Part shown: in pieces, positions 7,094-54,916 of the stretch
How positions within the stretch are numbered: the stretch's first letter is position 1
Layout of the letters: each line of letters opens with the position of its first letter
From: a virus
Lineage: Duplodnaviria; Heunggongvirae; Uroviricota; Caudoviricetes
Direction: 5' to 3' (one strand)
DNA length: 64,000 nt
Virus record (IMG/VR): IMGVR_UViG_3300020577_007233
Span: 189,593-253,592 of that record
Position numbers and translations under genes: made by a program
The notes under the pieces: generated by a model
Seen by the model: only the letters and a program-made list of their open reading frames with translations
Databases searched by the model: none
Told to the model about the DNA's origin: nothing

Positions 7094-7102
7094 TGCATCT
7101 CC

Positions 7103-12954: not shown

Positions 12955-13622
12955 TACTCCCTTGGCTGCTTATGTTTGTTATCTATTGTTGATAGTACGC
13001 TGTCGAGATTTTCTCTATCAAAGACGGCATTATCTGAACAACTTACTATTCGACGTACCCCTTTGTCGTGAATCTCGCTTTTGATCCAAATCAAACCTGC
13101 CAAGCAGTTATCCATTGTTTTGTTGTTATGAAACTTGTTTTTGCCATAGAAGTCGGTGTCTTCTCCTCTTGGGCGACAGTCGCAACCAAGAAGAATAATA
13201 GGGTCGCAACCTAGAACATACGCAAGCTGAACAGCAAGCGGCGAGCTTGCTCCGCTTCCGCAAAGAATTGTAGAATCTGATGGCAAATCAAATTTACCAG
13301 CCTTTATCTTGTATCTTAGAAATCTGTTTTCTGGATCTCCGTGAGATGTGCTGAACTTGATGGCTTTAGTTTCCAGTAGTTTTCTTCGCTCGGTAAACCA
13401 AAGACTTGCATCTTGCCAAAGAAGAATGGTTGAATCAAGCTTATAGAACGAGCGATTTATTCCAATAGTGAAGTAATTGGACAAAGGGGCAATGTCTTCG
13501 TCGTTTAAGGAAGGTCCGTTGCCCAGTATGAATACCGGAACACCGAGCAATCTATCCTTCCACTTTCGGACATCGCCCCTTTGTCTTACAGATGAATACC
13601 TGATTCTTTTGACTGTCATCAA
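12933..13622 (-). CDS. GT42 sialyltransferase / MptE(DUF115)-like protein, paralog 2
   Basis: FILGNGPSL, GINRSF and ILLGCDC. Collinear similarity to 12283..12954, which it overlaps by 22 nt. Confidence 0.5.
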   Translation of the reverse strand: MMTVKRIRYSSVRQRGDVRKWKDRLLGVPVFILGNGPSLNDEDIAPLSNYFTIGINRSFYKLDSTILLWQDASLWFTERRKLLETKAIKFSTSHGDPENRFLRYKIKAGKFDLPSDSTILCGSGASSPLAVQLAYVLGCDPIILLGCDCRPRGEDTDFYGKNKFHNNKTMDNCLAGLIWIKSEIHDKGVRRIVSCSDNAVFDRENLDSVLSTIDNKHKQPREYWSQFLL

Positions 13623-20692: not shown

Positions 20693-21370
20693 GTGAAAGA
20701 GGAATGTTTCACATATATCCGAAACACTGTAGTAGGATTTCATAATGGAAAGTTTACTATGAGATGGTACGATAGAGCAATACCCAAGATAAATGACATC
20801 ATGCCTTACCTAAAGGAGGCTGCTAAGTCTATTTCTGGAAGCAAGCAAGTGAAAAACGTATATGCTTGGGGTTCTGTCGCAGAAAACTTCGAGAACAAAG
20901 AATCTAGAGTGAAAGACATTGACATACTGATTGAATGTAACTTTGATTCTGGAGATTTACTGGCAATAGACAATAGCTATAACGGCGCTTTGAAGATCGC
21001 AAAATCTGAACTTGAAGATTTGGGATTCAACCCAGATGCCGTTTCTTTTACACAATCCCTACTAAAACTCAAGGCTCCATCCATTGATTTTTGGGCTATT
21101 TCCAAAGACAAAAAACTTCTTCACTGGGGTCCAATTACAGAAACCATTGAAGAATGGAAGCAGGTTAGAAAAGAAGCTGAGGTTAGAGCAGAAGAAACTA
21201 CTAAGCTTACAAAGAAAGAAGTCTTAGCAGCATCTGAATTTGATCGCAAGAAGTGGCACGAAGCCTACGAAAAGTACATTCAAGATTATGCAAATGGATG
21301 TCCGCAAGGATGGTACGCCTCTCAGAACAATGTCGATAAAGTCTTCGAGAAAACAACAAAACTCTCGTAA
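20693..21370 (+). CDS. Nucleotidyltransferase-fold (Pol-beta superfamily) protein
   Basis: A minimal NTase motif, AWGSVAENFENKESRVKDIDILIE, of the form hG[GS]x9-13DhD. The true start may be the internal Met at 20759. Confidence 0.4.
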   Translation: MKEECFTYIRNTVVGFHNGKFTMRWYDRAIPKINDIMPYLKEAAKSISGSKQVKNVYAWGSVAENFENKESRVKDIDILIECNFDSGDLLAIDNSYNGALKIAKSELEDLGFNPDAVSFTQSLLKLKAPSIDFWAISKDKKLLHWGPITETIEEWKQVRKEAEVRAEETTKLTKKEVLAASEFDRKKWHEAYEKYIQDYANGCPQGWYASQNNVDKVFEKTTKLS

Positions 21371-22201: not shown

Positions 22202-22690
22202 ATGATTACAAACTTTGTCTCATCAACGTTAAGCCTTGTAAAGGCCATTTTTCTCAAGAACCAACCTTCTCAAAAGGATCAGCCTATTCAAGAGGTTCAA
22301 CTCCCTGAAGAGAAGCTCATAGAGCCTGTGTCTATTGCGGAAATCGCTCAGGAGTTGCCGCATAAAGACAAGGTTATGTTTCAACCGAATACCCTCATCG
22401 CTACCAATAGCCATGATTTTCCCAACAACGAAAGAACCAATCTTGGTCCTCAACCACCATCTCAGCCTCAACAAAAGCATGTAATAACCATAGAATGCGA
22501 TTCTGACGCAGTTAGGCACATACAAAATCTTTGCAGGTTCTTTGAAATCAATGAGCTAGATGCATTGGCTAAAGGGCTTTGGCTCCTAACGGTCGCAAGA
22601 GATGTAGAAATCAATAATAAGAAGCTTGGGGTTATCTCTGTAGACAAAAACGGTCTTATTGTTGAGGTTTCTCCTATTAACATAGTATGA
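22202..22690 (+). CDS. Hypothetical protein
   Basis: 162-aa ORF. Confidence 0.4.
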   Translation: MITNFVSSTLSLVKAIFLKNQPSQKDQPIQEVQLPEEKLIEPVSIAEIAQELPHKDKVMFQPNTLIATNSHDFPNNERTNLGPQPPSQPQQKHVITIECDSDAVRHIQNLCRFFEINELDALAKGLWLLTVARDVEINNKKLGVISVDKNGLIVEVSPINIV

Positions 22691-23355
22691 ATCTTCAATT
22701 CTCAACATGCGCTATGTGTAGACCAGAGGTAATTGAAGAGACCTACCGTTCATGGACAAGTAAAATGAAAGGCGTCTCTTACAAAGAAATGACGCTCTTT
22801 CTTGATGTCGCTCCAATACCAAAAGAAGACATAATGAAAAGGGAGACCGTTGTAGAAATTGCCAAAAGCTACTTCGGTAATGTTATCGTAAACCTACCAG
22901 AGGAAAGAAATTTCTCTAAGGCTATGAAATGGTGCTGGTCTTCCGCAAACGCAGACTATCTTTTTCATCTTGAAGACGATTGGCGTCTTGAAAGAGAATT
23001 TCACATCAACGAACTCTTCTCTATAATGGAGAACAATCCTAAGATTTTACAAGTTTCTATTAGACATCACTCGGCTGATTGGAGAGGAGTGACTTTTTGC
23101 CCAGGACTTCTCAAAAAAGCCTATTACAAAACATTTGCCGACAAGTTTGTTGACAAGAAGGACGAAAAGGTATACATGAGTTACGAGGCAAATCCTGAAG
23201 CTCTAATGAGAAGAATTCAGTGGGATGTTGGTATATCTTATGACAATGCCGTACTATACCCTGAAGAAGTTATCGTTAGAGACATAGGTGAGGCCTGGAA
23301 AAAGCAAAGAGCCTTTTTCAGTCAAACGTATCTGTCTCAGTATAAGAGCGAATAA
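22687..23355 (+). CDS. Hypothetical protein (possible GT-A-like glycosyltransferase)
   Basis: 222 aa. An HLEDDW motif is faintly DXD-like, which is weak evidence. Confidence 0.35.
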   Translation: MNLQFSTCAMCRPEVIEETYRSWTSKMKGVSYKEMTLFLDVAPIPKEDIMKRETVVEIAKSYFGNVIVNLPEERNFSKAMKWCWSSANADYLFHLEDDWRLEREFHINELFSIMENNPKILQVSIRHHSADWRGVTFCPGLLKKAYYKTFADKFVDKKDEKVYMSYEANPEALMRRIQWDVGISYDNAVLYPEEVIVRDIGEAWKKQRAFFSQTYLSQYKSE

Positions 23356-26848: not shown

Positions 26849-26875
26849 AAAACCCCGCAAACAGCGGGGTTGTGT
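26849..26875 (-). terminator. Intrinsic terminator after the acidic-peptide gene
   Basis: On the minus strand, the hairpin CCCCGCTGTTTGCGGGG is followed by TTTTTGTTTTT. Confidence 0.65.
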
Positions 26876-27037
26876 TTAGATATCGTCATCGTCTTCGTCG
26901 TCATCAAATTCGTCGTAACTGTCGTCGTCACCAAAGTCATCAAACTCTTCGTCATCTTCGAAGTCGTCGAGTTCATCATCAAACTCGGAATCTTCCATCT
27001 CTGCGTCATTCTCTTCATCAAAAGGCTTCTTTCCCAT
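26876..27037 (-). CDS. 53-aa hyper-acidic protein (about 60% Asp/Glu)
   Basis: Hand translation gives MGKKPFDEENDAEMEDSEFDDELDDFEDDEEFDDFGDDDSYDEFDDDEDDDDI. A GGAG RBS lies 7 nt upstream. It is absent from the ORF track because it is under 60 aa. Confidence 0.5.
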   Translation of the reverse strand: MGKKPFDEENDAEMEDSEFDDELDDFEDDEEFDDFGDDDSYDEFDDDEDDDDI

Positions 27038-27049
27038 TGCTTTCTCCTT

Positions 27050-27769
27050 TCAGTCTTGTTGTAACCGGGACAACTCTCCATTGATATTTACAAGAGCAAC
27101 AGAGTTCAGTTTTTCGAATTGCGGGCTTAGGAAGATTTTTCCTTTCTTCATTTCCAAGAATTTCTTAAGGAAATCGGCTCTTCCTTTTCTCCATTGTTCG
27201 TCTGTATACATGCTGTATTCAGCACGAACCCCTTCAACAAGTTTCATGTAGGCATCAAAATCGTCAACCCCGAACCGTTGAAGATCAACGTCCACCAACA
27301 AATTTGCTTCTAAATCTTCCGGCGGCGGAGGGCTGTTGTGTTTGGTAAAGAGAATCAGTTCCGAGATTCTAGAAGCTTGAACAGAAGTCCAACCTGCGTC
27401 CATTAGATCGTTATAGCAGAGAACTGCGCTGCTCTTTTCGTTATCTATATTGCTAACGGCTTTATATACTCTATCGTGGTTGAACCATGCAAGAAGAACA
27501 TGGTTCATGTTCCCCTTAAAAGAAGACTCAACATCGACTAGGGCCTTCACTCCTTCTCTGATGTGTTCAAAATCATGCCACTTTCTAGGAGTCCCTTCAG
27601 CAATTGGTTCCTCATATTCCCTAGTAAGGACATTGTACATTCTTACGGTGTGACTTATTTTGTTGAGATGCAATCCTGCATTCACTGCTCTATCAAAAAC
27701 GTAGTACAAGAAACCGTTTTCGTAAAACGTTTCAATAAGAGGGTGAGATTTCTTTTCAAGCATTCTCAT
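27050..27769 (-). CDS. HD-domain-like phosphohydrolase (tentative)
   Basis: H...HD...D spacing (ISHTVR; AWFNHDRVY; DVDLQRFGVDD). Its start overlaps the stop of the CoaD-like gene. Confidence 0.4.
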   Translation of the reverse strand: MRMLEKKSHPLIETFYENGFLYYVFDRAVNAGLHLNKISHTVRMYNVLTREYEEPIAEGTPRKWHDFEHIREGVKALVDVESSFKGNMNHVLLAWFNHDRVYKAVSNIDNEKSSAVLCYNDLMDAGWTSVQASRISELILFTKHNSPPPPEDLEANLLVDVDLQRFGVDDFDAYMKLVEGVRAEYSMYTDEQWRKGRADFLKKFLEMKKGKIFLSPQFEKLNSVALVNINGELSRLQQD

Positions 27770-28275
27770 TTTCTGTGTTTTGATTCAAGTGCTTCAGCGA
27801 TTCGTTCAGGAACGTACTGCCTTATTTCTTTTTGCCAACCTTCGTAACCGATAAGGCTTTTCACGAAGCTGCTGGAAACAACAGAAAGATGATGAGGCGG
27901 CGTTACCATGATTGTCTCAACATCAAAACCCCTACTGTTTGCCATTTTCCTGTTGATCTCAGCCATTGTTGATTCAACAGAAAAGTCTTCGGCATTTCGG
28001 ACTCCTCTCAACAAGTGAGTCGCTCTTTCTTGCCGGATAAAATCAACCAAGTAGTTCGGTCCAATCGTCTTGACTACAGCGCCTTTGGGAACGCAAGACG
28101 TAGCCATAGACGCTCTTTCTTCGGCTGTAAAGAGGTATCTTCCAACCTTGCTGGGATTTACGGCAATACAGACAATAAGCTCATCAAAAAGCTCAAGGCC
28201 TTGCTGAACAACCCAAAGATGACCAAAGGTTATGGGGTCAAGACTTGCGGCGTAAATGGCTTTTGTTCTGCTCAT
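27766..28275 (-). CDS. coaD: Phosphopantetheine adenylyltransferase-like nucleotidyltransferase (CoaD family)
   Basis: Collinear with E. coli CoaD: AIYAASLDPITFGH matches AIYPGTFDPITNGH. Further matches are IAVNPSK...FTAEERA, ATHLLRGVRNAEDF and VSSSFVKSL. Confidence 0.75.
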   Translation of the reverse strand: MSRTKAIYAASLDPITFGHLWVVQQGLELFDELIVCIAVNPSKVGRYLFTAEERASMATSCVPKGAVVKTIGPNYLVDFIRQERATHLLRGVRNAEDFSVESTMAEINRKMANSRGFDVETIMVTPPHHLSVVSSSFVKSLIGYEGWQKEIRQYVPERIAEALESKHRK

Positions 28276-28309
28276 TCCCTATTTTAGAGCAGAATTTCTT
28301 CACAAAAAA

Positions 28310-29224
28310 CTACAGCAAAGCTTCATCATCTGGAAACTCGGACGTTTCAGAAGCAGGAGTGTAGCAGATTATGCCTGCATCCAGAGCCTCGCCTGCAACA
28401 ACCGTATACAGTGCTATTGCCTTGACTTTTGCAGAACCAGTTATAGAGCGATATGACTCAACCATCCATTTGATAGAAAGGTCTAGTTCTCTCATGGAAG
28501 AGAATCGCACGCTGTTTATCTCAAAAAAGCTTCCAGGAGGAACAACATCTCCTGCTTTTGACATAGTACCATGATAGCTATTTCTAGTTGGAGCGGTATA
28601 GTGACTAGCATTAAACCCCTCGCTAGCAGGAAGCATAATAAGAACGTTTTTGCTTGAGTTTGGAATAGGAACTTTCCTTCTCTCAAACTGCATAACCTCG
28701 TTCTTTTCGATCTCGCAAAGACCAACCTCTTTAGGGTTGAGAGACATTTCCTCAGCTACGGCTTCCCATAGGTCATAAGCAATCGGTTGTTGCGGTTCAG
28801 TTCTTATTGTTTTGATTCCAAGACTATGAAAGATGGGATGCTTTGGGCGACCGTTCGTTGCTCCGACAGCAAAAGAGCGAACACCAGAAGCGTCCACAAA
28901 GCGGTAGACAAAAATTCGAACAAACGGAGCAGGTTCCGCTCCGATTGAGGCCTTTATCATTGATGAGAGCTTTTGAGCAAGATTGGTCATTCTTTTCATA
29001 AGCTGCTCTGCGTCTCTGCACTTTATGAACGGTGCATAAAAACAGCCAGCCGTAGATTCCCTGTTGGAATGAATGACAGTATTACTGTCATCAAGAACTG
29101 TTCCAAAAAAAGTAGTGTCAAAGCTGATTGGGATCTCTTTGTATCCCTCGCCAACAGAATCAACATCGGTGTAAATCTGTTCGCTATTAACGCCAGCTAT
29201 CTCTTTGTACTGCGTTGTACTCAT
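28310..29224 (-). CDS. Hypothetical protein (operon partner of ABC ATPase)
   Basis: The start is taken at Met28 (MSTTQYKEI), giving an ATGA overlap with the upstream gene's stop. Confidence 0.45.
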   Translation of the reverse strand: MSTTQYKEIAGVNSEQIYTDVDSVGEGYKEIPISFDTTFFGTVLDDSNTVIHSNRESTAGCFYAPFIKCRDAEQLMKRMTNLAQKLSSMIKASIGAEPAPFVRIFVYRFVDASGVRSFAVGATNGRPKHPIFHSLGIKTIRTEPQQPIAYDLWEAVAEEMSLNPKEVGLCEIEKNEVMQFERRKVPIPNSSKNVLIMLPASEGFNASHYTAPTRNSYHGTMSKAGDVVPPGSFFEINSVRFSSMRELDLSIKWMVESYRSITGSAKVKAIALYTVVAGEALDAGIICYTPASETSEFPDDEALL

Positions 29225-29733
29225 GACACTCTCCCATATTCGTTGATTGCAACAGAATCGAGATTGTTGGTAACTTCTTTTTCGCAACTCGCAAAAAAGA
29301 TACACAGAGATCTCATTAACATCTGCTTAGCCGCTTCGTCTGAGTTTGTTCTAAGTAGCTCTATCTTTGAGTATTTGGAAGTCGCAAAGATAGTGTCTTC
29401 AACAAGTTCCAGTTTAACTGTAACACCAGAACACAGGAACTCTTGAAGTTTTTCAGAGAAGTCAGAATCAATGTCGCTTTCGCAATTAACCTTTTTCCCA
29501 AGATAAGCCAAACCAGCGGCAACAATTGTCTGCGCCCTAGTCTTGTCAAAATATGAAGGAGCAACAAGAAAAACCAACGGATTGTGGCCCGTTTTCTCTG
29601 AATAGACCTTCAAAACCATGTTTTTGACAGACGAGCAGATGCTGAACTCGTTTCGAGCAGCAAAAGCATCTTTATAGGCGTAAATCAGCTTGTTTAGGCT
29701 TTCAAAACGGTCTTTGGTCATATATCGCCTCAA
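29221..29733 (-). CDS. Hypothetical protein (operon partner)
   Basis: 170 aa with 4-nt overlaps on both ends. Confidence 0.45.
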   Translation of the reverse strand: MRRYMTKDRFESLNKLIYAYKDAFAARNEFSICSSVKNMVLKVYSEKTGHNPLVFLVAPSYFDKTRAQTIVAAGLAYLGKKVNCESDIDSDFSEKLQEFLCSGVTVKLELVEDTIFATSKYSKIELLRTNSDEAAKQMLMRSLCIFFASCEKEVTNNLDSVAINEYGRVS

Positions 29734-30734
29734 TCAACAAGGGGTTGACCCTTGATGACTGGGATATCGAACAAACAGTCCTCTCCATACAAGTCTCTCA
29801 CGTGTTCAATCATTACGGAGCTATGGCTTGTCACAATAAACTGCTTGTCAGGAAAGCACTCGATAAGCTTGTCTATCATTTTTCTGTGTCTCTTGAAATA
29901 CACATGCATTTCAATATTGTCAACCATTACGATATCGCTTTTGTCTATTAGCGACGGGTCGCAAAGGCTTCTTAGGAGAGTTGCTATCTTCTTTTCGCCA
30001 GCACTCATTGATTTGTAGTGAACTTTGACGTTTCCTTTTTCGATAACGAAACCTTGATAGAAGGCATTCTTGTCTTCTTTTACGCTTTGAGTGATGTTAT
30101 CGTAGATCTCGTTTTTGGTCATGGTAGGCGCTTCTATCTTTTCTTTGCCGTAGTTTTTAGCAAGAGCCTTGATAGCCTCTCTTAGGGACTCGTTCCCTCC
30201 TTCGACACCTTCTGATGATACAAGCTTTTCTGCGTAACACTTGTACCCGTATATGGCTCTCGCCAAATCAAGAAAGAGTTCGATTCTTTCTGCTGGTATT
30301 TGGAACTTACTTGTATTGAGAGGGTTGTCTGCGTCAATAAACACTGAGTTTATTGCCCCTCTGTCGATTAGGTCGTTTTGAATGACATCATCATCCTTAA
30401 CGTGAACTATCAGATCTTTTTGACCATCATAGAAAATGCCCTTAATTTCCATTTGGTCCGAAAACTTAGTGAATCCAGCATAGCTTGGATCGTAATCTGG
30501 ATGATATTGAAGCTTTCTGAGCAGAAGGTTATCGTCAGAAGGGTTTCTTTTTGCGTAGGCTTTTGACCTGCCAAGGAGACCGATAGCATTCAATCCTGTG
30601 CTTTTGCCGCATCCGTTTGGACCAAAGAACATATTTACAGGTTTGAATGAACCATCTGCTCTTGTAAAATCAAAAACACAAGGATCTTGAAAGCCAGCAT
30701 AGTTACGAAGAAGCAAGGACTTAATTTTGAGCAT
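29730..30734 (-). CDS. ABC-type (AAA_21/SMC-RecF-like) ATPase
   Basis: Walker A FGPNGCGKST, signature-like MSAGEKK, Walker B IVMVDNIE and H-loop TSHS. The start is set at MLKIKSL, where a GGGAGG RBS lies 8 nt upstream. Confidence 0.7.
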   Translation of the reverse strand: MLKIKSLLLRNYAGFQDPCVFDFTRADGSFKPVNMFFGPNGCGKSTGLNAIGLLGRSKAYAKRNPSDDNLLLRKLQYHPDYDPSYAGFTKFSDQMEIKGIFYDGQKDLIVHVKDDDVIQNDLIDRGAINSVFIDADNPLNTSKFQIPAERIELFLDLARAIYGYKCYAEKLVSSEGVEGGNESLREAIKALAKNYGKEKIEAPTMTKNEIYDNITQSVKEDKNAFYQGFVIEKGNVKVHYKSMSAGEKKIATLLRSLCDPSLIDKSDIVMVDNIEMHVYFKRHRKMIDKLIECFPDKQFIVTSHSSVMIEHVRDLYGEDCLFDIPVIKGQPLVD

Positions 30735-30922
30735 GAAAAAACCTCCCGGTAATGCTGTTATCGGCATACCGAGAGGTCTGGAAAGAAAAGACAAGCTAGC
30801 GACTACCGAAAATTCTCTTCCATCCCCTTGCTATCTTAAAGCATGCCCAAGAGATTATCGCGAGGATAACCATTCCCATAACGTGCTTTTGATGCATTAG
30901 GCTGCAACGTCGAGATTCTTCC

Positions 30923-31333
30923 TCAATATCTTTGCGAGTCAGCAATTCGTATCTCCCGAATAGAGTTAATTTTGGAAGAAAGCCTCCACGGAAACTTTGT
31001 AGCAGATGGGTACGAATCCATTCCTGTTACAATATACTTTGTCTCAAGAGGATGCCGACCAGGAGGAAGATCAAGCAACACGGAAGCCACAACAACAGCG
31101 TTCTTTTTGAGAGCTTTGCTTTCTGCGTATTTCTCAACCTCAACCGCAATCGTTTTTGGTAGATTTGCTATCAACAGTTGACGCTCTTCTCCGTCAACAA
31201 CGCAATTGCAAGCAAAGCGTCTAAGCAATTTCGTGTTGCCACGGAATGTCCAGCTTTGAACAAACTCAACAAACGGCCTATGAAAATGAACGATATGACG
31301 TTCATTGCGTTTTGGCTTGAAAAATACGTTCAT
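30923..31333 (-). CDS. Hypothetical protein
   Basis: 136-aa ORF. Confidence 0.4.
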   Translation of the reverse strand: MNVFFKPKRNERHIVHFHRPFVEFVQSWTFRGNTKLLRRFACNCVVDGEERQLLIANLPKTIAVEVEKYAESKALKKNAVVVASVLLDLPPGRHPLETKYIVTGMDSYPSATKFPWRLSSKINSIREIRIADSQRY

Positions 31334-31372
31334 AAAACAAGTCCCCGCCCGTTAGAGCAGGGACTGTTGGTA

Positions 31373-32611
31373 TTACTTGGACGAAGGAATGAGCATTGTT
31401 GACGCAGGAGCAGTGGTGCTTGCGTTTACAGGAGTGTTAGGACGAGCAGAAGGCTGTCCAAGCGCAGTCCTGATAGCTCCCATGAAGTCGCCAGAAAGCG
31501 AAGTGAAGTTCATGTTCTGAGGAAGGAAGCCGTTGAAGTTCTGGAAGGCCGTTCCCATGCTTCGAGAAATCTCGATCTGAGCAAAGGTTTGACCACCAAT
31601 ACCTTCATAAGCGGCGTACAAGAGTTTCTGCGCCTCAGCCTTAGCTCTACCCTCAGCAAGGATGGCGGCAGCGCGATTTTCAGCAGCAGCCTTTTCAGCC
31701 TCAGATGCAATCTTCAAACGAGAAGCATCAGCTTCGGCGGCAAGAATGGTCTGCTGCTTCTGCGCCTCAGCAGCGGTCAAGGTAGCAGCCGCAACCTGCT
31801 CAGCCTTAAGCTTAGCAACTTCCTTGTCTCTCTGAGCTTCAACAACCGCTCTGTTCAGGTCAGCCTGAGCAACGGCTCTTGCCTTCAATGCATCAGCCTC
31901 TGCTGCCTTGGTTTCTTCATCAGCGCGAAGCTTCTTCTGCTGAGCAATCTGACGAGCCTTGATTTCGGCGACATAGTTAGGATCAAGAGCAATCTTCTCG
32001 ATTACGAAGTTCTCGACAATAACACCCTTTTCCCGAAGTTCGCCATTCGCAGCGGCCAAGTCCTGCTCAATTTCGGTTTGCAGTCTAACAAGGCCCTCAC
32101 CAGAGTATGCGTCAGCGGCCTTCATTTTGGTGGCATGATTCTTGACGATCAACTGAACGCTATTGCGAAGCAGCCTTTCCTCAATCAAGCCAGAAGGGGC
32201 ATCAACGTGAGAGTGATATCCCTTGTGAATATCAACAACCTTGGTCGGGTCATAGCGCCAGCGAACGCTCAGGTTGATGTGCATGTCCTGCTGATCCGCG
32301 GACTGCACAAGATAGGGATCATAATCTCTGCCTCTTCCAGATTCGCCGGAGCCAGCAGGCGTATCGTTCATAACAAAGACCTGGCTGGTCATGTCGTAAC
32401 GATAGATTGTGGTGGTTACTCTGTTGCGAGAGTAAACGCCAGGGCCAAGAGAATTCGAGTCAACGCCGCTCATTGTCTCTCGAACGCCAATCTCGCTACC
32501 GCCAACCGTTTCAAGGTCAAAGGTAGCAAAACCAGCAATGGCGAGAATAGCAATTACAACAACTGAGGCAATCGCTTTGAACGGAACGGAACTTTCTGAA
32601 TGGTAAGCCAC
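31373..32611 (-). CDS. SPFH (band-7/flotillin-like) membrane protein
   Basis: An N-terminal TM is followed by an SPFH core (GVRETMSGV...LGPGVY...DMHINLSVRWRYDP...KGVIVENFVIEKIALDP). A long Ala/Glu/Lys coiled coil resembles flotillin EA repeats. Confidence 0.65.
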   Translation of the reverse strand: MAYHSESSVPFKAIASVVVIAILAIAGFATFDLETVGGSEIGVRETMSGVDSNSLGPGVYSRNRVTTTIYRYDMTSQVFVMNDTPAGSGESGRGRDYDPYLVQSADQQDMHINLSVRWRYDPTKVVDIHKGYHSHVDAPSGLIEERLLRNSVQLIVKNHATKMKAADAYSGEGLVRLQTEIEQDLAAANGELREKGVIVENFVIEKIALDPNYVAEIKARQIAQQKKLRADEETKAAEADALKARAVAQADLNRAVVEAQRDKEVAKLKAEQVAAATLTAAEAQKQQTILAAEADASRLKIASEAEKAAAENRAAAILAEGRAKAEAQKLLYAAYEGIGGQTFAQIEISRSMGTAFQNFNGFLPQNMNFTSLSGDFMGAIRTALGQPSARPNTPVNASTTAPASTMLIPSSK

Positions 32612-32649
32612 TATAAACTCCTTGCGTCATTGACGCTTGTTTGAGAACG

Positions 32650-33159
32650 TTACTTCATCATTGAATTAAGCCGCTCAAGACGTTCAGCTTGAGCAAGCAC
32701 GGTGTCTGTTTCTGCCTGCATTCTTTTGCGAAGCCGTTCAGCTTCTTTTCTTTTCTGGCTTTGCCAGATTACAATACCAAAGGTGACAAAGCCAACAAGA
32801 GCAACTACTGGTACAACAAACTCAAGAAGATAAAGCCTTCTTGAAAAGATACCAACAAAAGCAACAAGACCGCAAATCGCCCAAATAGCAAGATTGATCG
32901 TGCCTGTCGTGTCTTTTTCTTTTCTTATTTCGGGAGGCAATGTTGGCCCCAGCTTGCTAGCAAGAAGCTCGACTTGCTCGCTTTTGTAGACTTTATTGGG
33001 ACCGTCAAGGAAGATTTGCAAATGACCTGCCTCTGCTATTCGGTCAACTTCAGCTTCCTCAATACCCAGAAAGTCTGCTGTCTGCTTGGAAGTGACAAAC
33101 ATATTGTGGGTGGAAAGGACTCTTGGCGTACCGACAGATGGAATAGTTTTTGTGAGCAT
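32650..33159 (-). CDS. Two-TM membrane protein (putative partner of the SPFH protein)
   Basis: Two hydrophobic helices, then a charged tail. It sits immediately upstream in the same operon. Confidence 0.45.
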   Translation of the reverse strand: MLTKTIPSVGTPRVLSTHNMFVTSKQTADFLGIEEAEVDRIAEAGHLQIFLDGPNKVYKSEQVELLASKLGPTLPPEIRKEKDTTGTINLAIWAICGLVAFVGIFSRRLYLLEFVVPVVALVGFVTFGIVIWQSQKRKEAERLRKRMQAETDTVLAQAERLERLNSMMK

Positions 33160-34099: not shown

Positions 34100-37000
34100 T
34101 TATCCGATTATTCTTCTATACCAAGTACCAAAAGCTTGACGAGGTTGATTTGGATCATTCTCGCCTCCCTCATTGAGTTCTCTTTCTTCTTCCCAAAGAT
34201 CAGGATTGAGATTATCTTGGAAAGCTGCATCTTTACCAGCTTGTCTCAAGATTTCGTTCAAGTCAGCAGCAAGTTGCGCCTGATTTGCACGATCTTCAGC
34301 CCTTGCTTCCTTAAGCTGCTGCTGAACTTCGGTATCATCCATACCTGCAAGCAACGTTTCTTCTGCTTTTGCATCAAGATCTTGAACAATACCTGCAATG
34401 CGGATCTTGTTCCTAACGAATCTGTAGAAAACCTCGTCAGGATTAAGCTTCTTGTTTCCGTTAGCATCTACCCCTTCGGCTCTGACAACCATATATCTTG
34501 TGTTTACGGGCATGAAGTTATTGATACGGAAAGCTCTACCCTCAGCCTGCTCGCAAACCCTAGGCGTCCAGTCAAAGTCGTTCATAAGAACGTGTTGAGT
34601 GGAGTTTTCCATACTGATACCAGTACCACCCTTGAGTGCAGCAACAACCATAGCCCTTGCCATAGTGTCTTCTCTTTTGAACTCATCAACAGCGGCTTGG
34701 ATGTTTGCGCCCTTGTCGCCGTCCATAACGTGTACAACCTTTAGGTCTGGGTCTATGCCAGCAAGATGTTCCTGTAGGCCTCTAACCAGATCTCGGCATG
34801 TATCCTTAAAGCAGGAGAAGATAAGAACCTTTTCTCCTTGATCAATCAAGGCAGTAGCGTCAGCAAGTGTCTTTGGAACTTTTCTCTTAGCTAGAACAAG
34901 CCTTGATGCTGTTAGATTACAAATTGCCGCATTTGGGTTCTTGTAGGCGTTGAGTTTGTTCTGAAGCTCAACAGCAAAGCCGTCCATATCAAAATCAGCT
35001 TCGTCAATATACTCTTCTCCAATAGTGTGTTGAGGAATGTCTGGATTCATGGACTTTTGAGACCTGCTCAAATATGCGCCAGACAAGGTTAGCCATTTAC
35101 GAAGATTGTAAGCTCCCTTTTCTTGAGCCTCAATAGCTTCCTTGACGTTCATGTTTTTCATGGTCGCCTTAGAGCCAATAAACTCATTGGTAAAGTCTCT
35201 TGTTGAAAGCTCTCCAAGGGTGTGTCCTGTTATTCTTAGGACATTATGAATGTCAGCCGCTGTGTTTGCTGCTGGCGTTGCAGAAGCCGCCCACTTAAAG
35301 GGAATCTTTGGAGCCAGATCAGAAAGGTTCTTAGCGATACTTGTAGTTTCGTTCTTAAGCATATGTGCTTCGTCAAACACAACAACAGTCCACTGACCTG
35401 TATACAAAGCGTCGAGATAAGCTTGAGAAGTTGCTCTTGCAACCGTTGGAGCGCCGCTCGGTCTTCTTATTGCTCCCTCTGGTCCCTTCTTTACGTTGGA
35501 TGAGATATCAGAATATGACATAATAACCCATTTTGCATTAGACGCAGGATTCGTGCTTACTTGAGCAGGATCTTCTCCTAGCTTTTGCACGATTTCTCTC
35601 ATCCACTGTGTTTGGGTATTTTTGAGCGTGAAGATAAGGATTCTTCCGCCGCTTTGAGCAACTCTCATCTTTGCTGCTGCAATGGTGGAGAGAGTCTTAC
35701 CTGTACCAGTCTTGTCTCCAAGAATGGCACTGTTTCTTTGATACAACCAAGCAACACCTTGCTTCTGTTTTTTGAAGAGTTTAGCTCCAGGAACGGCAGC
35801 GTCCGTTTCATTAAAGAAACGGTTATAGTCCCATTCAAGTTCACCATTCTTCCTTTTCTGAACACCATCTTCAATAACAGCATAGCCATCTAGCTCGCCG
35901 GTATATCTTGTTCTTTCAAGCTTCTTGTCATTCAGTAAGCGAGCCAAAAGAATTCGAATGCTATTAACGTCCCATTGGCTCTTCTTCAAAAGAAGACTAA
36001 ACCTAACGAAGTCGTCGAAAGAACCCCAAATAAACCAACCGTTGTTCTGTTCAAGTCTCATTCCTGTTGGCTTATGTCTTTCAGGCTTTGGTTGCTCTTG
36101 AGGGTTTGCAGGGTTATCCTGATTGCCTCCCATAGGAAGCTGAGGTTGCTGAGGAATGAATCCTCCCCTAATATCGTCGTATTTTTCTGGTCGCAAGTCA
36201 GTAAGATTGCCCTTACTTGGGAAAGAGAATTTGATGAAATCTCCAAGCTCTTCTCTAGAGCCAGGAGTCTGAGGACTTCGCACAAACATGAAGAACTTTG
36301 TTCTTACGCTTGCATCTTCAACTACGAGAATCTTGTTAGGGTCGAGCTTCGCTATATTCTTCTCAGTTAGCTGTTGATCGTACTTATCAATAGCATCAAT
36401 GAAGTCTTGTACATTATACTCTCTCTTCCTCATAAAAGAGGCGAGAGCATGAAGTTGCGATGGAACTGTTCCTTTTTGTCTCGAAAAGACATAGGAAGCG
36501 ATAGGTCTAATAGAAACCTCTTGACCGCCGATACGCTCTTGGCGTATGTAGTTCATAATTTCTTGATTATAGTTGAAGCGAATGGCAATAGCGTCCCAAG
36601 TTGGAACCTTAACTTCAACAGTCTTTTCGTCAGCAAGAGGTTGTTGCCCGGCTTGATCTTCTCCGCCAGCGGCAACTTGCATAGCAACTTCTTCAAGGGG
36701 TGCGGTATTGAAACCAATACCCTTAAGAGCAGCGTTCATTGCGTCAAAAGCTCCCTTGTCGCTAATCATAACATGGAAGTAGGGGCCGTCAATTTGAGCC
36801 TTAGAGAAAACAAAGAACGGAGCAGGCTCAATCTTGTTTCGATTCTTAGTGTTTTTCCATGTTGCCCATTCAGGATACTTACCGTTTCCGTCTTTAAGTC
36901 CATCAACAAACTTCTTGGCTATGCCTTGAAGCTTTTTGAATTCAACCTCAGTAAGGCCTTCCAATCTAACAATGGCTGTAATTCTTCCGGTTTTACCCCA

Positions 37001-37270
37001 AGCGTGATTCTGTAGAACAGCTAGTTGCCTTTGTCCTTGCGGAGCCTGATTATCAGCGGGCGCAACTGCGGGAGCAGCGGGGACAGCCGCTTGATTTGCG
37101 GGAGCAGCGGGAGCAACAGGAGCAGCCGGTTGAACCTCATTAACAGGAGGTTGAACTGGTTGTTCAGGATTGCCGTCTCCCAAAGGATCGCCATTATTCA
37201 GAGGATCTGGATTTCCTCCGTTTTGAGACAATCTAACTAGCCTATCAATTTTGAAGTAGCTTGATAACAT
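34100..37270 (-). CDS. SNF2-family helicase with large N-terminal extension
   Basis: Motif I GDKTGTGKTLSTIAAA, motif II VVFDEAHMLKN and motif VI QAEGRAFRIN. The N-terminal region of about 500 aa includes a Pro/Ala/Gln-rich low-complexity tract. Confidence 0.85.
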   Translation of the reverse strand: MLSSYFKIDRLVRLSQNGGNPDPLNNGDPLGDGNPEQPVQPPVNEVQPAAPVAPAAPANQAAVPAAPAVAPADNQAPQGQRQLAVLQNHAWGKTGRITAIVRLEGLTEVEFKKLQGIAKKFVDGLKDGNGKYPEWATWKNTKNRNKIEPAPFFVFSKAQIDGPYFHVMISDKGAFDAMNAALKGIGFNTAPLEEVAMQVAAGGEDQAGQQPLADEKTVEVKVPTWDAIAIRFNYNQEIMNYIRQERIGGQEVSIRPIASYVFSRQKGTVPSQLHALASFMRKREYNVQDFIDAIDKYDQQLTEKNIAKLDPNKILVVEDASVRTKFFMFVRSPQTPGSREELGDFIKFSFPSKGNLTDLRPEKYDDIRGGFIPQQPQLPMGGNQDNPANPQEQPKPERHKPTGMRLEQNNGWFIWGSFDDFVRFSLLLKKSQWDVNSIRILLARLLNDKKLERTRYTGELDGYAVIEDGVQKRKNGELEWDYNRFFNETDAAVPGAKLFKKQKQGVAWLYQRNSAILGDKTGTGKTLSTIAAAKMRVAQSGGRILIFTLKNTQTQWMREIVQKLGEDPAQVSTNPASNAKWVIMSYSDISSNVKKGPEGAIRRPSGAPTVARATSQAYLDALYTGQWTVVVFDEAHMLKNETTSIAKNLSDLAPKIPFKWAASATPAANTAADIHNVLRITGHTLGELSTRDFTNEFIGSKATMKNMNVKEAIEAQEKGAYNLRKWLTLSGAYLSRSQKSMNPDIPQHTIGEEYIDEADFDMDGFAVELQNKLNAYKNPNAAICNLTASRLVLAKRKVPKTLADATALIDQGEKVLIFSCFKDTCRDLVRGLQEHLAGIDPDLKVVHVMDGDKGANIQAAVDEFKREDTMARAMVVAALKGGTGISMENSTQHVLMNDFDWTPRVCEQAEGRAFRINNFMPVNTRYMVVRAEGVDANGNKKLNPDEVFYRFVRNKIRIAGIVQDLDAKAEETLLAGMDDTEVQQQLKEARAEDRANQAQLAADLNEILRQAGKDAAFQDNLNPDLWEEERELNEGGENDPNQPRQAFGTWYRRIIG

Positions 37271-37296
37271 TCATCTTTCCCTTGTTATTCAGTTAT

Positions 37297-40047
37297 TCAA
37301 CCAAATACCCCTAATTTCCTATACCAACTAGAAGAAGCTTGTTTTCCTTGCTTAGCGGCCCTTCTGTTGCAAAGATCGACAACTCTAGCGTCAGCCATAG
37401 CAACAGGATCAATTTCTTCGCACCTCAAATATCCAGAACTACCAGGCAGGGCAGAGGTTAGGAGCATGATAACAACATTGACATACTTCTCCTTAACATC
37501 TTCTCTAGCCTTTACAAAAGCAGGAAGTTTGGGATACTCTTTAGCCAAAAGACTGTAAGATATGGCAGCGTTTGTGTTTACTCTTTTTCTTAGATATGCG
37601 TCCAAGATTTCTGGCAACTGCTGTTGCTCTGGGTTTAGACTCAAATATACAGCAGGCTTCAAATTGATTGTCTTTACAATCTGTGGTATGTTTTCTTGAG
37701 CGTTATCAACGGCTTTTCTAAAATCAGGATCTTGCTGAAGCCTTGGATCAAAATACCCCTGACCGTCCAAAAGTTGTCTTTTGAGTGGGTCGCTCTTTAG
37801 AACGTGAGCCTTGTATGCGTCAAAAAGACCAGGATCGTTTCTGTACTCTTCATCAAACTTGACAAACTTACCAATGTTCATGTTAAGAACTTTTCTCTTG
37901 GTAATCGCAGCAAGCTGCTGAAAGGACGGAAGTTTGCGAACCCATCCAGGAGCAATGGAGTTGATTTCTCTGTCCATAAACTCATTGAGGAATATCGTGT
38001 CTTCCGTTTGTCTCTTATACGGAAGCTTGTGAGCGCCGCTAATTCTCTTAGCGTACTCGTCGCTTATTCTTTCAATGTTCTGCGCATTCTGAAAGAAGGC
38101 CTCAACAGACTGTCTTGGCATGTCTTGAGAGAAAAATCCAGCTTCAATAGCAGGACCGGCACTTTCTAACTTAGCCTGCTCTCTGTCCATTTCAAAGGCT
38201 CTGTCTTCGTTAAGTTCAGGCAGATACTTACCAATAGCTTCTTGCATCTTTTCAAGTTGCATATTGGCTATGTTGATTCTTCTTCTTTCTTCCTTAGTCT
38301 TTCTTGTTGCTCCGTGAGCGCTAGCTATCCAGTGTATGCCGCCCCTGTACTTAGCAAGGACAGCTTCTTTGAACATCTCTTTTCCTCTTGGGAAGATTTG
38401 CCAGTGATTAGGAACTCGATCCAAAACCTGTCCAACGTTTTCAGGAGCGTTCTGGTACATAACAGCAAGCCTACCATGAACATTGTCAGTAAAGGCAGGA
38501 TCATTCAACACAAAGTCAGGCATCTGTTGCGCATTGTTGGCAAGATTCTCAGCCAAAGCAAAAGCGTCATTACCGCCCAAGGCTTCAACTCTCTTAAACC
38601 AACCCTTCTTGCACGCATCTTGCATTGACTTAACGACAGCAGGATACTTGGCGAAGTTTTCGTTTTCTGTAACCCTGTTATAGAGTTCAGGACTTCTCTC
38701 AAGCTCGTTTTTGAACCACTCAAGCTCTTCGAGATTAGGAGTACCGTCTTCGTTGAAGAAGCTCTTGTTGAGGTTTCTTTCTTTGAGAATTCTGTCCCAG
38801 TGAGACCTAGCACTGCCGGTTATCTTAGGCTCAAGACCTTCTCTATATATCAAGTCAGTAATTTCGCGCCAATAAGCAGTAGGACAAGAACGACTAACTC
38901 CGTCTGCAAAGCTTTGATCGCCAGCTATCTCGTAAATTTGCTGATTTTGATTACCAAAGCGTATACCAACGTGACCCTTTCCATTGTCAACAAGAATCCA
39001 AAAATCTCCATCTGATAGATAGATTGGACCATTACTATTCTTCTTTGTACACCAAGAATTAGGGACAGAGAAGTTGTGAAGAATATCAAGGTTTCTGTCG
39101 TAAACTTGCTCTGCTGTTAGGGGATTGCCCTTTTCGTCTACTCCTGGCTTGGTGTTAGCCTTCATAGGAAGCTTAAGCCATCCAGATTGATTGTCCTTAC
39201 TAAACTCTTTCCTACCAGCCTCAATACTGTGATCAACAAGGTCTTTCTGATAGTCCTTGATTATGTCAATTCTAGAAGAGCCATTTTGATCAATAGCTCC
39301 TTGAACCTGATCAACAGGAATTCCTGTTTCGGCAGATATCTGTTCGGTAGTCTTGCCTTCCTTATTAAGAGCAAGAATCTTCTTGTAAGCGGCTTCGTCC
39401 TTAATGGGGCCGTCATACTTGAATCTAACTCTCTTGAGCTTTTGAAACATCTGTCCAATAACAGCAGGATTCGCTGCTGGCGGAGGGTTGACTGTTTTGG
39501 CTTGAGAAGTTTCAACAACAGGATTCAAAAGCATGTAGATAAAGGCTGGATTGGCAGCATAGTCAGGATTCTCTATAAGATACTGCTTCCACCCATCATA
39601 TGTCTGTTGCTTCTGTCTATTGATAACGTTGAGATAGAATTTCTCAGCCCCTTCAGGGTTGTTTATGTACATCAAGTGAGCGTGTTCAAGCTCAGGATTG
39701 AAGATGTTATTTCTCTTGGCAAACTCATACTCTTTCTCTACGTCAAACTTCTTAGCAAAGTAGTTGTCAGGGTTCTCTGGATCCATTTTGGCAAAAAGCT
39801 TTGGAAGAACCATTAGCTGAATGTACTCTTGTATGTCTTTTTCGCCGTTCTTTGGGTCTATTTTCTTGGCAACGTCTTGCCCCGTCTCTTCGTTCTCAAC
39901 GTTATATCCACCCCACTTTATCATGGAGTCGAACTTCATAATGAAAAGTTGAAGGATTGGATCAACAACCTTATACTGTTGGATCTTCTCTTTCGGTCCT
40001 GCAACTTTTATCAATGGCCTTGCGGCAACATACCAATTCATCAGCAT
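37297..40047 (-). CDS. Large hypothetical protein (916 aa)
   Basis: Long uninterrupted ORF in the operon. No recognizable motif. Confidence 0.5.
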   Translation of the reverse strand: MLMNWYVAARPLIKVAGPKEKIQQYKVVDPILQLFIMKFDSMIKWGGYNVENEETGQDVAKKIDPKNGEKDIQEYIQLMVLPKLFAKMDPENPDNYFAKKFDVEKEYEFAKRNNIFNPELEHAHLMYINNPEGAEKFYLNVINRQKQQTYDGWKQYLIENPDYAANPAFIYMLLNPVVETSQAKTVNPPPAANPAVIGQMFQKLKRVRFKYDGPIKDEAAYKKILALNKEGKTTEQISAETGIPVDQVQGAIDQNGSSRIDIIKDYQKDLVDHSIEAGRKEFSKDNQSGWLKLPMKANTKPGVDEKGNPLTAEQVYDRNLDILHNFSVPNSWCTKKNSNGPIYLSDGDFWILVDNGKGHVGIRFGNQNQQIYEIAGDQSFADGVSRSCPTAYWREITDLIYREGLEPKITGSARSHWDRILKERNLNKSFFNEDGTPNLEELEWFKNELERSPELYNRVTENENFAKYPAVVKSMQDACKKGWFKRVEALGGNDAFALAENLANNAQQMPDFVLNDPAFTDNVHGRLAVMYQNAPENVGQVLDRVPNHWQIFPRGKEMFKEAVLAKYRGGIHWIASAHGATRKTKEERRRINIANMQLEKMQEAIGKYLPELNEDRAFEMDREQAKLESAGPAIEAGFFSQDMPRQSVEAFFQNAQNIERISDEYAKRISGAHKLPYKRQTEDTIFLNEFMDREINSIAPGWVRKLPSFQQLAAITKRKVLNMNIGKFVKFDEEYRNDPGLFDAYKAHVLKSDPLKRQLLDGQGYFDPRLQQDPDFRKAVDNAQENIPQIVKTINLKPAVYLSLNPEQQQLPEILDAYLRKRVNTNAAISYSLLAKEYPKLPAFVKAREDVKEKYVNVVIMLLTSALPGSSGYLRCEEIDPVAMADARVVDLCNRRAAKQGKQASSSWYRKLGVFG

Positions 40048-40271
40048 ATCTCTCCAAACGTTAGAAGATACTCACATATTCCCTGAAAATCGTCCCTATC
40101 CTTCTCTTTCTTGCTCATGATATTAGAATCGACAAACTTTCGCACAAAAGAAAACCGCCGACTCAGCCAAAGACCAAATCGGCGGGAAGTTTATCTCTAT
40201 TCTCGCTTCTCCCAACACTCTACTTTGGTGTAAAAACATCTCTGTTTCTACAAGACTATAACATAGTCTCT

Positions 40272-54892: not shown

Positions 54893-54916
54893 GTTCCTTG
54901 TTTCCTTTGAGGAAGT

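Follow-up and report, generated by a model that had tools for sequence, protein, structure and literature searches.

Among ATPases of the ATP-binding cassette (ABC) type, PtuA of the Septu and retron systems and AriA of the PARIS systems are encoded directly upstream of the tightly coupled genes for their partners, PtuB and AriB. AriA binds negatively charged proteins in an ATP-dependent manner, acidic phage proteins among them; a glutamate, E393, is the residue mutated to obtain an ATPase-defective form of the protein, and PARIS-type systems are often carried by viruses (PMC11464382). On the metabolic side, the HD-family phosphodiesterase AcpH releases 4'-phosphopantetheine from holo-carrier proteins (PMC8557913), and coaD, the gene for phosphopantetheine adenylyltransferase (PPAT), has been reported from viromes as a viral auxiliary gene (PMC8093824; PMC11097641). 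In a stretch of 64,000 nucleotides (nt) from a virus of the class Caudoviricetes (positions 189,593 to 253,592 of the IMG/VR record IMGVR_UViG_3300020577_007233; hereafter the window), the open-reading-frame listing gives six co-directional minus-strand genes at 26876-30794, coding for an ATPase resembling PtuA and AriA, two orphan proteins, a CoaD-like protein, a predicted HD phosphohydrolase and a hyper-acidic peptide. We hold with high confidence that this locus is a composite, comprising a core conserved throughout a clade of huge phages and an optional CoaD-HD cassette embedded within it. The core consists of the ATPase, the orphan proteins of about 166 and about 304 amino acids (aa), a small terminal peptide and an RNA leader. 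The features of the locus, in the order in which they would be transcribed, are as follows:

30739..30779, minus strand: leader stem-loop, 5' of the ATPase gene (folding and covariance model)
29730..30734, minus strand: ABC ATPase, 334 aa, of the AAA_15/AAA_21/SMC_N type (Pfam, PADLOC and PDB matches)
29221..29721, minus strand: orphan partner, 166 aa (clade-restricted homologues only)
28310..29224, minus strand: orphan partner, 304 aa, with two similar halves and an acidic C-terminal tail (AlphaFold2 model)
27766..28275, minus strand: CoaD/PPAT, 169 aa, an accessory gene (NCBIfam TIGR01510, PDB PPATs)
27050..27769, minus strand: predicted HD-superfamily phosphohydrolase, 239 aa, of an uncharacterised phage family (phrog_19425, HD motifs)
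26876..27037, minus strand: hyper-acidic 53-aa peptide, last gene of the cluster (composition, own AAGGAG Shine-Dalgarno sequence)
26851..26871, minus strand: intrinsic terminator-like hairpin and T-run at the cluster end (AACCCCGCtgtttGCGGGGTT then TTTGTTTTTG)

The composite organization was recognized by comparing about 20 related metagenomic loci, lying on contigs of up to 494 kb (IMG/VR contigs of 334, 371 and 494 kb among them), in which open reading frames were classified with hidden Markov models (HMMs) of the individual families. Every locus covering the region codes for the ATPase, a protein of about 170 aa, a protein of about 300 aa and a small terminal open reading frame, in this order; the overlap between the 166-aa and 304-aa genes is kept, and the terminal peptide stays at the end whatever has been inserted before it, as in L028, where a sulfotransferase gene (6535-7305; Pfam Sulfotransfer_3, 3.6e-14) separates the two orphan genes. 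Among the roughly 20 loci bearing the trio of ATPase and two orphans, the ATPases are 57-98% identical. The trio is accompanied by both CoaD and HD in the window lineage, L012, L019, L020, L025, L027 and L028, by HD only in L014 and L021-L024, and by neither in L015/L016, L017, L018 and L026. CoaD was never found without HD, which is present in most lineages (an identical HD protein occurs on a contig of 256.8 kb), and when the 370-kb and 494-kb contigs, whose version of the locus has no CoaD, were scanned for patterns, neither clade-type CoaD nor clade-type HD turned up at any other position. The preliminary description had taken the six genes as one functional unit and had looked to absence or splitting of the operon in relatives as a test of that view. 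In the event CoaD and HD are patchy, CoaD being missing in several lineages and both proteins in others, whereas the ATPase, both orphans and the terminal peptide are always found together; hence the six genes do not constitute a single signalling or defence module. Two distant homologues were used to root a neighbour-joining tree of the ATPases. L028, its most basal member, possesses both CoaD and HD, and the distribution on the tree therefore implies that CoaD, and likewise the CoaD-HD pair, were lost (or gained) more than once.

The behaviour of the CoaD-HD pair outside this arrangement points the same way. The two genes overlap by ATGA in the window, L019, L020, L025 and L027, and in L028 (8182-9368) the C-terminal part of CoaD is apparently fused in frame to HD, with CoaD split at a T5 run. 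On an unrelated 72-kb viral contig (L051:2983-4813) we found a 393-aa fusion of CoaD with the dephospho-CoA kinase CoaE (PDB matches to PPAT at 7e-25 and to dephospho-CoA kinase at 1.6e-6), directly followed, with an overlap, by a gene for an HD protein of the window's family (HMM, 2e-17); no ATPase trio was present within the 3 kb fetched on each side. Based on the apparent fusion in L028 and the recurrence with CoaE in L051, we propose that CoaD and HD form an autonomous cassette, rather than being part of the ATPase module as was first supposed, and the CoaD-CoaE-HD context of L051 places the HD family at the last steps of coenzyme A (CoA) synthesis. An open reading frame upstream of the HD homologue in phage NCTB was considered as a further CoaD and rejected.

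The gene set was read from the open-reading-frame listing and the junctions directly off the sequence; independent metagenome gene callers agree on it, since the same six genes (334, 166, 304, 169, 239 and 53 aa) are found in the public gene calls of two metagenomic contigs with an identical CoaD. The orphan partners, initially given as 170 and 305 aa, are accordingly 166 and 304 aa long. The statement that all junctions overlap by 4 nt applies to two of the five, namely the 166/304 junction, with an ATGA overlap, and the CoaD/HD junction, where the ATG of HD lies over the CoaD stop codon in the same manner. At the ATPase/166 junction a 4-nt overlap requires a TTG start for the 166-aa gene, while the gene callers choose an ATG that lies 8 nt past the TGA stop of the ATPase and is accompanied by a GAGG Shine-Dalgarno sequence; the 304/CoaD spacer is 34 nt long, and the 12-nt spacer between HD and the acidic peptide carries an AAGGAG Shine-Dalgarno sequence. 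For the ATPase itself the most likely start is the ATG at 30734 (GGGAGG Shine-Dalgarno sequence, 334 aa) rather than the TTG at 30794 (354 aa); what would be the N-terminal extension of the longer product is a conserved RNA hairpin.

Lying on one strand, with gaps of -4 to 34 nt and a clear terminator at the end, the cluster is operon-like, as had been proposed. The terminator at 26851-26871, which had been described as strong, is indeed an 8-bp stem with 6 GC pairs followed by a T-run; weaker terminator-like sites within the cluster sit in coding sequence, and their count matches the chance expectation. There is no terminator-like site between the upstream 136-aa gene (30923-31333) and the ATPase gene, and hence the transcript may start further upstream; a terminator-like hairpin is found at 31340-31365, upstream of the 136-aa gene. 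No sigma-70-like promoter above chance was detected upstream of the ATPase, the GGCTAGACTTTC promoter-like motif that recurs in the 54-64 kb block of the window is absent from the six-gene operon, and Rfam and tRNA scans of the window came back empty.

We then considered the ATPase, which scores above the Pfam cut-offs for AAA_15 (59.9 bits), AAA_21 (44 bits) and, just, SMC_N (41.4 bits), is matched by the PADLOC models for PtuA and AriA at 1e-19 to 1e-17 (AriA at 1e-17), and has the PtuA of retron Ec83 as its best match in the PDB (9e-11); further defence-ATPase families matching it are AbiLi, MADS3 and NsnB. By these profile relationships it is assigned, together with PtuA and AriA, to the AAA_15/AAA_21 (OLD/PtuA/AriA-like) branch of the SMC/RecF-type ABC superclass, which bears out and narrows the earlier identification of an SMC/RecF-kind ATPase with all the expected motifs. 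In the window these read GPNGCGKST (Walker A), SAGE (signature), IVMVD (Walker B) and TSHS (H-loop). Across 14 clade members and two distant homologues the Walker A motif is unchanged, and the signature S(A/D)GE, the Walker-B aspartate (hhhhD) and the TSHS H-loop are invariant. The Walker-B aspartate is followed by asparagine and not by the catalytic glutamate: DNIEMH of the phage protein aligns with DEIDLH of Ec83 PtuA, and DN(I/L/V)E(M/L)H is invariant in the same 14 clade members and two distant homologues. Judged from the aligned motifs, then, no clade member has the catalytic glutamate by which ABC ATPases are recognized. The two distant homologues (L029:340-1551 and L030:5073-6071; 24-26% identity) have DN(V/I)EMH at Walker B and are followed by other genes, with no members of the 166-aa or 304-aa families; that they share the motif indicates that the glutamate-to-asparagine ATPase subfamily is wider than this clade.

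The likeness to PtuA and AriA extends from the shared Pfam branch to similar size and motif spacing and to the position of the ATPase gene directly upstream of tightly coupled partner genes. The phage locus differs in having neither an HNH partner like PtuB nor a DUF4435/TOPRIM partner like AriB, in having partners with no Pfam or PADLOC match, in carrying asparagine at the position of AriA E393, and in being the vertically inherited core of a phage clade rather than a mobile bacterial island. Likewise, equivalog scores lie far below the cut-offs: 44.1 bits against 500 for PtuA (NF041760) and 22.8 bits against 172 for RecF (TIGR00611, matching the N-terminal P-loop only), with 20 bits against 478 for the SbcC subfamily model. 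RecF has about 190 residues between its Walker A and signature motifs, as does the phage ATPase, and an affinity to RecF and SMC heads is further suggested by the SMC_N score just above its cut-off, a length of about 340 aa and a gene neighbourhood of replication and recombination functions. It differs from these proteins in lacking a long coiled coil, hinge or zinc hook, and its partners are unrelated to RecO/RecR, kleisins or Mre11. On such scores the protein would thus fall outside Septu, PARIS, RecF and SMC alike; it is a new variant within the OLD/PtuA/AriA-type branch.

Immediately before the ATPase start, 41 nt (30739-30779, minus strand) fold as a hairpin whose stem ends 4 nt from the ATG, in which an anti-Shine-Dalgarno arm (ACCUCU...) is paired with the Shine-Dalgarno sequence (GGGAGG) and whose loop bears the conserved motif UGCCGAUAAC. 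The minimum free energy is -23.1 kcal/mol (z = -6.1), and 0 of 200 shuffled sequences fold as well. Ten further loci have a hairpin of -18 to -26 kcal/mol at this place before the ATPase; these vary in the sequence of the inner stem and share the loop motif UG(C/U)CGAUA, TGYCGATARC occurring just once in the window. A covariance model built from three close sequences finds the leader in 10 loci, window included, always and only upstream of the ATPase. The resulting alignment is fitted to the structure, and two of its rows are antisense and one is a terminator. Pairing is observed in 96.6% of its cells, and both partners vary in 11 of the 13 pairs; this covariation is matched by 0 of 500 shuffles, and slid controls reach at most 0.15 against 0.635. 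RNAalifold returned no structure from a MAFFT alignment of the leaders, in which a 1-nt difference in loop length had misaligned the stem arms, and for this reason the covariance-model alignment was used. In four lineages the hairpin is weak or absent and the loop motif alone is kept. A conserved, covarying hairpin that pairs with the ribosome-binding site points to gene-specific translational control of the ATPase by sequestration of that site. Several replication genes of phage T4 are governed by translational operators, the targets of gp32, gp43 and RegA. The leader resembles these in placing a conserved hairpin over the Shine-Dalgarno sequence of one gene, with a loop that could be a protein-binding site; it differs in having no sequence relationship to them and in the weakness or absence of the hairpin in the four lineages just mentioned.

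The two orphan families are, as judged with hhalign, unrelated to one another. The gene for the 166-aa protein is always directly 3' of the ATPase gene, and the protein, whose detected homologues are restricted to the clade, has a conserved C-terminal motif, RSLCI..A.C.K.V(S/T)NN....LN.YG. Neither protein is matched in Pfam, PHROG, NCBIfam or PADLOC, neither family profile matches a PDB sequence, and Pfam scans of the individual members of both families reveal no recurring family and no GNAT, TOPRIM, OB or nuclease signal. A word-indexed search recovered four close homologues of the 304-aa protein, an exhaustive profile search of 1.84 billion representatives extended the family to 25 members, all of about 300 aa, and a scan of viral contigs with the single 304-aa protein gave no relatives; the 23-sequence alignment is too divergent for pattern scanning. 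An AlphaFold2 model that had reached a predicted local distance difference test (pLDDT) score of 35 with five sequences was repeated with the 23-sequence alignment and then reached 88.5, with a predicted template modelling score of 0.82. As modelled, the protein would have two similar halves, each with a beta-rich stretch, a long helix and a beta-hairpin, followed by a disordered tail. The model has no fold match in the PDB or BFVD and no detected OB fold, and the four invariant columns of the family include none that looks catalytic. If the window protein and its twin of 98% identity are counted as one, the family has 22 distinct C-termini, 15 of them consisting of an acidic run with a final phenylalanine. 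On a 1.3-kb contig (L011:23-899) one homologue ends at 226 aa and the C-terminal remainder lies on the opposite strand just downstream, which is either a small inversion or an assembly artefact. Neither the libraries nor the literature searches yielded an earlier description of the two orphans or of their association with the ATPase.

The 53-aa peptide is as hyper-acidic as first described, with 33 of 53 residues aspartate or glutamate (62%), a pI of 4.05 and a net charge of about -31. Relatives have a small open reading frame of 45-73 aa at the same terminal position, several copies of which end in phenylalanine; aspartate and glutamate make up a fraction of 0.58-0.73 in most lineages, the terminal frames of L015, L018 and L026 being less acidic and sharing (N/D)(D/E)PYYDDDE, and in L025 no copy was seen on the plus strand. 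It is thus the position of this peptide that is conserved and not its sequence. The tail of SSB is DDDIPF-COOH, and the tails of SSB and of T7 gp2.5 dock into partner proteins. The acidic run with a C-terminal phenylalanine recalls these tails, and the extreme negative charge recalls T7 Ocr. However, Ocr is a folded dimer, whereas the phage peptides are of low complexity and probably disordered; the likeness is one of composition, and the 304-aa protein differs from SSB in that its model has no detected OB fold. AriA recognizes highly negative proteins with ATP (PMC11464382), and in this locus an ATPase of the same branch is encoded together with a hyper-acidic peptide.

The proteins of the region differ greatly in their conservation. 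In distant relatives, identities to the window proteins are:

ATPase: 63-72% (63-94% across the clade)
Peptide deformylase: 44-51%
916-aa protein: 35-44%
SNF2 helicase: 33-44%
166-aa protein: 25-37%
304-aa protein: 22-38%

That the ATPase remains at 63-72% while its neighbours fall far lower indicates an unusually strong constraint on it; only an NTP_transf_2-like neighbour in the syntenic region is as well conserved, and few proteins of the block evolve as fast as its 166-aa and 304-aa partners. Outside the clade, the DNA of the 26-32 kb region has no similarity to any of 50,697 phage records, tblastn against cultured phages found no relative of the 304-aa protein or the 916-aa neighbour and one weak partial match to the ATPase (27% identity over 30% of the query), and a pattern scan for the ATPase in 185,579 bacterial and archaeal species genomes gave no relative. 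The clade is uncultured.

Turning to the cassette, CoaD scores 131.7 bits against a cut-off of 103.3 for the PPAT equivalog TIGR01510 and is 31-38% identical to cellular PPATs. It matches the solved PPATs in the PDB over its full length at about 1e-24, confirming the collinearity with authentic PPAT already remarked upon. The catalytic residues H18, K42, RGxR (R88/R91), N106 and the SSS motif are kept; in the alignment with 5h16, FGH of the nucleotidyltransferase motif (T/H)xGH, K, RGvR, iNR and vvSSS are conserved and PGTFDP is replaced by AASLDP. The data hence point to an ordinary PPAT-family member predicted to act in CoA metabolism, a pathway assignment that is supported by its fusion with dephospho-CoA kinase in L051, and the earlier idea of a PPAT fold repurposed for another substrate or for nucleotide signalling finds no support. 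Its presence in a phage is also less unexpected than had been thought, for annotated coaD genes exist in Brevundimonas, Caulobacter and Microcystis phages, and coaD is a reported viral auxiliary gene. What sets it apart from bacterial CoaD, aside from the AASLDP replacement, is that it is always coupled to HD and is here embedded in an ATPase operon. A reading as a nicotinamide mononucleotide adenylyltransferase (NMNAT) for NAD reconstitution was rejected, since the NMNAT models give 29 bits against a cut-off of 127.

The HD protein matches phrog_19425, annotated as phosphohydrolase, at 2.9e-18. Its motifs R.YH...H, HD..Y, NE..S, D.D and GR are invariant across lineages, as are the putative metal-binding residues H65, H69, H98-D99 and D160/D162 in six divergent members. 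By its motifs it is accordingly predicted to be a member of the HD superfamily, in line with the initial call of an HD-like hydrolase, and it is a member of no curated family, with no NCBIfam match at E <= 0.1. On balance, we consider it probable that CoaD and HD together form a CoA-pathway cassette. The more specific proposal that HD is a phosphopantetheine-releasing enzyme is advanced by analogy and as doubtful. AcpH, too, is an HD-superfamily metal-dependent phosphodiesterase, its product is the substrate of PPAT (PMC8557913), and the HD gene is here coupled to one for a PPAT, on which grounds a shunt from holo-acyl carrier protein (holo-ACP) through 4'-phosphopantetheine to dephospho-CoA is the preferred form of the proposal. 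The phage protein differs from AcpH in having no detectable sequence similarity to it, the link being one of gene context, and AcpH was rejected as a sequence homologue because the Pfam ACP_PD model gives no match.

The genomic surroundings of the operon include genes for ribonucleotide reductase, dUTPase, ThyX, an RNase T-like exonuclease, a DHH phosphoesterase, peptide deformylase, a sigma factor, HNH endonucleases, SNF2 and Dda-like helicases, an ART-PolyVal-domain protein and a band-7 protein. Upstream of the operon, at 34100-47115 on the minus strand, lie genes for the Dda-like helicase (792 aa), a 780-aa protein with an ART-PolyVal ADP-ribosyltransferase domain, a 709-aa DUF4116 protein, a 916-aa orphan and the SNF2 helicase (1056 aa), a set reminiscent of early or injected "polyvalent" proteins. 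Throughout the clade, the genes for SNF2 and the 916-aa orphan remain syntenic with the ATPase module. Between a conserved 289-aa gene and the ATPase (30923-33159, minus strand) are genes for a basic 136-aa protein (pI 9.95), a band-7/SPFH protein (412 aa) and a 169-aa membrane protein; these are lineage-specific insertions, and in distant relatives the 289-aa homologue directly precedes the ATPase.

Further away in the window, a stop-free frame of at least 2190 codons (1-6570, minus strand) runs off the window start and belongs to a giant phage protein. Two tandem sialyltransferase-like genes lie at 12283-13622 (minus strand), a GT2-like glycosyltransferase gene at 22687-23355 (plus strand) and the gene for the NTP_transf_2-like protein at 20693-21370 (plus strand). 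The block at 54400-63754 has a GC content of 52-55%, compared with 42% elsewhere, a strong AT skew and 28 copies of GAAAGTCTAGCC, all in one orientation and 150-650 nt apart, where 0.35 would be expected by chance; on the minus strand this motif reads GGCTAGACTTTC, and most copies lie about 20-25 nt upstream of the minus-strand ATG of a small orphan open reading frame. A second motif, ACTCATAACGATTA, occurs six times. The block gives the impression of about 25 small genes that are individually equipped with a promoter or leader motif.

As an overall explanation of the locus we tentatively favour, at somewhat less than even confidence, a composite operon in which a clamp-type core encloses a CoA cassette. 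In this explanation the ATPase, like its PtuA-, AriA- and RecF-type relatives, would serve as a clamp or scaffold that dimerises under the control of ATP, hydrolyses it slowly and holds the 166-aa and 304-aa partners. DNA, or the tail of SSB, would be mimicked by the free acidic peptide and by the acidic, phenylalanine-ending tail of the 304-aa protein, which would compete for a basic groove and so gate binding to DNA or to a DNA-binding partner. The process served by the core would be replication or recombination of phage DNA or early takeover, with ATPase dosage held under translational control by the leader hairpin. The cassette would act on the 4'-phosphopantetheine/CoA pool, in that HD might supply or recycle the PPAT substrate, for instance by taking 4'-phosphopantetheine off holo-carrier proteins as AcpH does, and PPAT would make dephospho-CoA free of host feedback control. 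For the core taken by itself, a clamp gated by DNA or a DNA mimic and acting in DNA metabolism is an analogy that we would presently call unlikely; a role in DNA metabolism is favoured by the neighbouring SNF2 and Dda-like helicases, ribonucleotide reductase, ThyX, dUTPase, DHH phosphoesterase and RNase T.

Several observations weigh against the composite clamp-and-cassette explanation. Neither partner has a recognizable DNA-binding, nuclease or other domain, and as the 304-aa model is also without a known fold, the mechanism of the core is drawn by analogy only. The asparagine after the Walker-B aspartate need not stop hydrolysis, and a conserved glutamate three residues further on might stand in for the catalytic one. 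On the side of the cassette, HD matches neither Pfam HD (PF01966) nor the AcpH-family ACP_PD at E <= 1 and has no solved relative in the PDB by sequence or profile; the L028 fusion hinges on the split of CoaD at the T5 run, which may reflect an assembly error or gene decay; and in Rhodococcus phage Weasels2 (L033, 78970-79530) an HD homologue lies among tRNA genes and small open reading frames with no CoaD nearby, so that the HD family may have more than one role. The ATPase tree used to order the lineages is a simple neighbour-joining tree with no support values. Finally, the fast evolution of the partners, the DNA-mimic-like peptide and the neighbouring ART-PolyVal protein would suit a counter-defence arms race equally well.

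A counter-defence role, although improbable in our estimation, is accordingly the alternative that survives best. As a DNA mimic, the hyper-acidic peptide would here inhibit restriction-modification, BREX or similar host immunity directed at DNA, and the ATPase with its two fast-evolving partners would be an early takeover complex, which either loads or deploys this mimic or serves as a catalytically slow decoy for host ATPase sensors of the OLD/PARIS/Septu type. A peptide of charge -31 that is kept in position and not in sequence, partners that diverge much faster than the backbone as an arms race predicts, and an upstream block with SNF2 and ART-PolyVal proteins, as is usual for injected polyvalent counter-defence proteins, are all consistent with this, as are the asparagine in place of the catalytic glutamate and the resemblance of the ATPase to PtuA and AriA, the latter of which binds acidic phage proteins (PMC11464382). 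However, counter-defence genes are normally patchy, whereas this ATPase is highly conserved, vertically inherited and in fixed synteny; PHROG and Pfam scans gave no match to a known anti-defence family, and in three lineages the small peptide is not hyper-acidic.

The same ATPase relationships could be read the other way, as those of a phage-borne defence or superinfection-exclusion system of the OLD, Septu or PARIS kind, in which the ATPase would do the sensing, at least one of the two orphans would be a new effector, and the peptide would be an antitoxin-like inhibitor or a mimic of the trigger. We regard this as distinctly unlikely. It agrees with the best family matches of the ATPase (PtuA, AriA, AbiLi, MADS3 and NsnB), with the tight coupling of the genes and tight translational control of the ATPase, and with the frequent carriage of PARIS-type systems by viruses (PMC11464382). 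Yet the partners show no nuclease or effector signature and no PADLOC match, the 304-aa family has no invariant residues of catalytic type, the PtuA equivalog score is 44 bits against a cut-off of 500, and the module is core and syntenic in the whole clade, whereas defence systems are usually mobile and patchy; nor did cultured phages or the 185,579 species genomes of bacteria and archaea yield it.

A single six-gene pathway, in which an adenylylated or phosphopantetheine-like group would be built or put on a macromolecule such as DNA, protein or the acidic peptide, or a nucleotide signal would be made, we consider very unlikely. The six-gene order does recur in several deep lineages, including the most basal, L028, inside whose trio stands a sulfotransferase, another enzyme with a 3'-phosphoadenosine cofactor, and ABC ATPases with acyl-CoA-dependent GNATs have been predicted to be DNA-modification systems of jumbo phages (PMC7824862). 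Set against this are the absence of CoaD, or of CoaD and HD, from at least four lineages that keep the remainder, the recurrence of CoaD-HD next to CoaE with no ATPase trio, the resemblance of CoaD to an ordinary PPAT and the lack of any transferase or GNAT signature in the partners. The notion that these are unrelated neighbours packed by genome compactness at an insertion-tolerant spot, to which the insertions on both sides of the trio and within it (band-7, 169-aa, 136-aa, the L028 sulfotransferase, CoaD/HD) and the dense, one-strand packing of nearly the whole window might lend credence, seems to us just as hard to sustain when the order and adjacency of the ATPase, 166-aa and 304-aa genes persist clade-wide despite partner identities of 22-37%, the 166/304 overlap and the position of the terminal peptide are kept, and CoaD and HD co-occur, overlap, are apparently fused once and recur together elsewhere.

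If the core is in fact just another counter-defence or exclusion system and the cassette an unremarkable pair of auxiliary metabolic genes, the value of the locus would be moderate and mostly one of cataloguing. The fullest form of the composite explanation, which we think improbable as a whole, is that the core is a previously undescribed machine of a huge-phage clade, built from a translationally gated ATPase with asparagine at the place of the catalytic glutamate, two orphan subunits, one of them with a new fold and an SSB-like acidic tail ending in phenylalanine, and the free hyper-acidic peptide, a machine in which DNA-mimicking acidic tails gate an ATP-locked clamp, and that HD is a new phosphopantetheinyl hydrolase. 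If so, ATPases of the OLD/PtuA/AriA type, so far seen almost only as bacterial defence sensors and here a conserved core gene of huge phages, would gain a new set of partners and probably a new fold. Experimental handles are offered by the natural Walker-B glutamate-to-asparagine replacement, by the acidic peptide encoded alongside and by the leader, in which the ribosome-binding site is sequestered. HD, in turn, would let phages strip holo-ACP and send its prosthetic group into CoA by way of their own PPAT. The linkage of CoaD with HD, and with CoaE, provides a testable function for an uncharacterised HD family and suggests an undescribed manipulation by phages of the 4'-phosphopantetheine/CoA pool and possibly of host fatty-acid synthesis.

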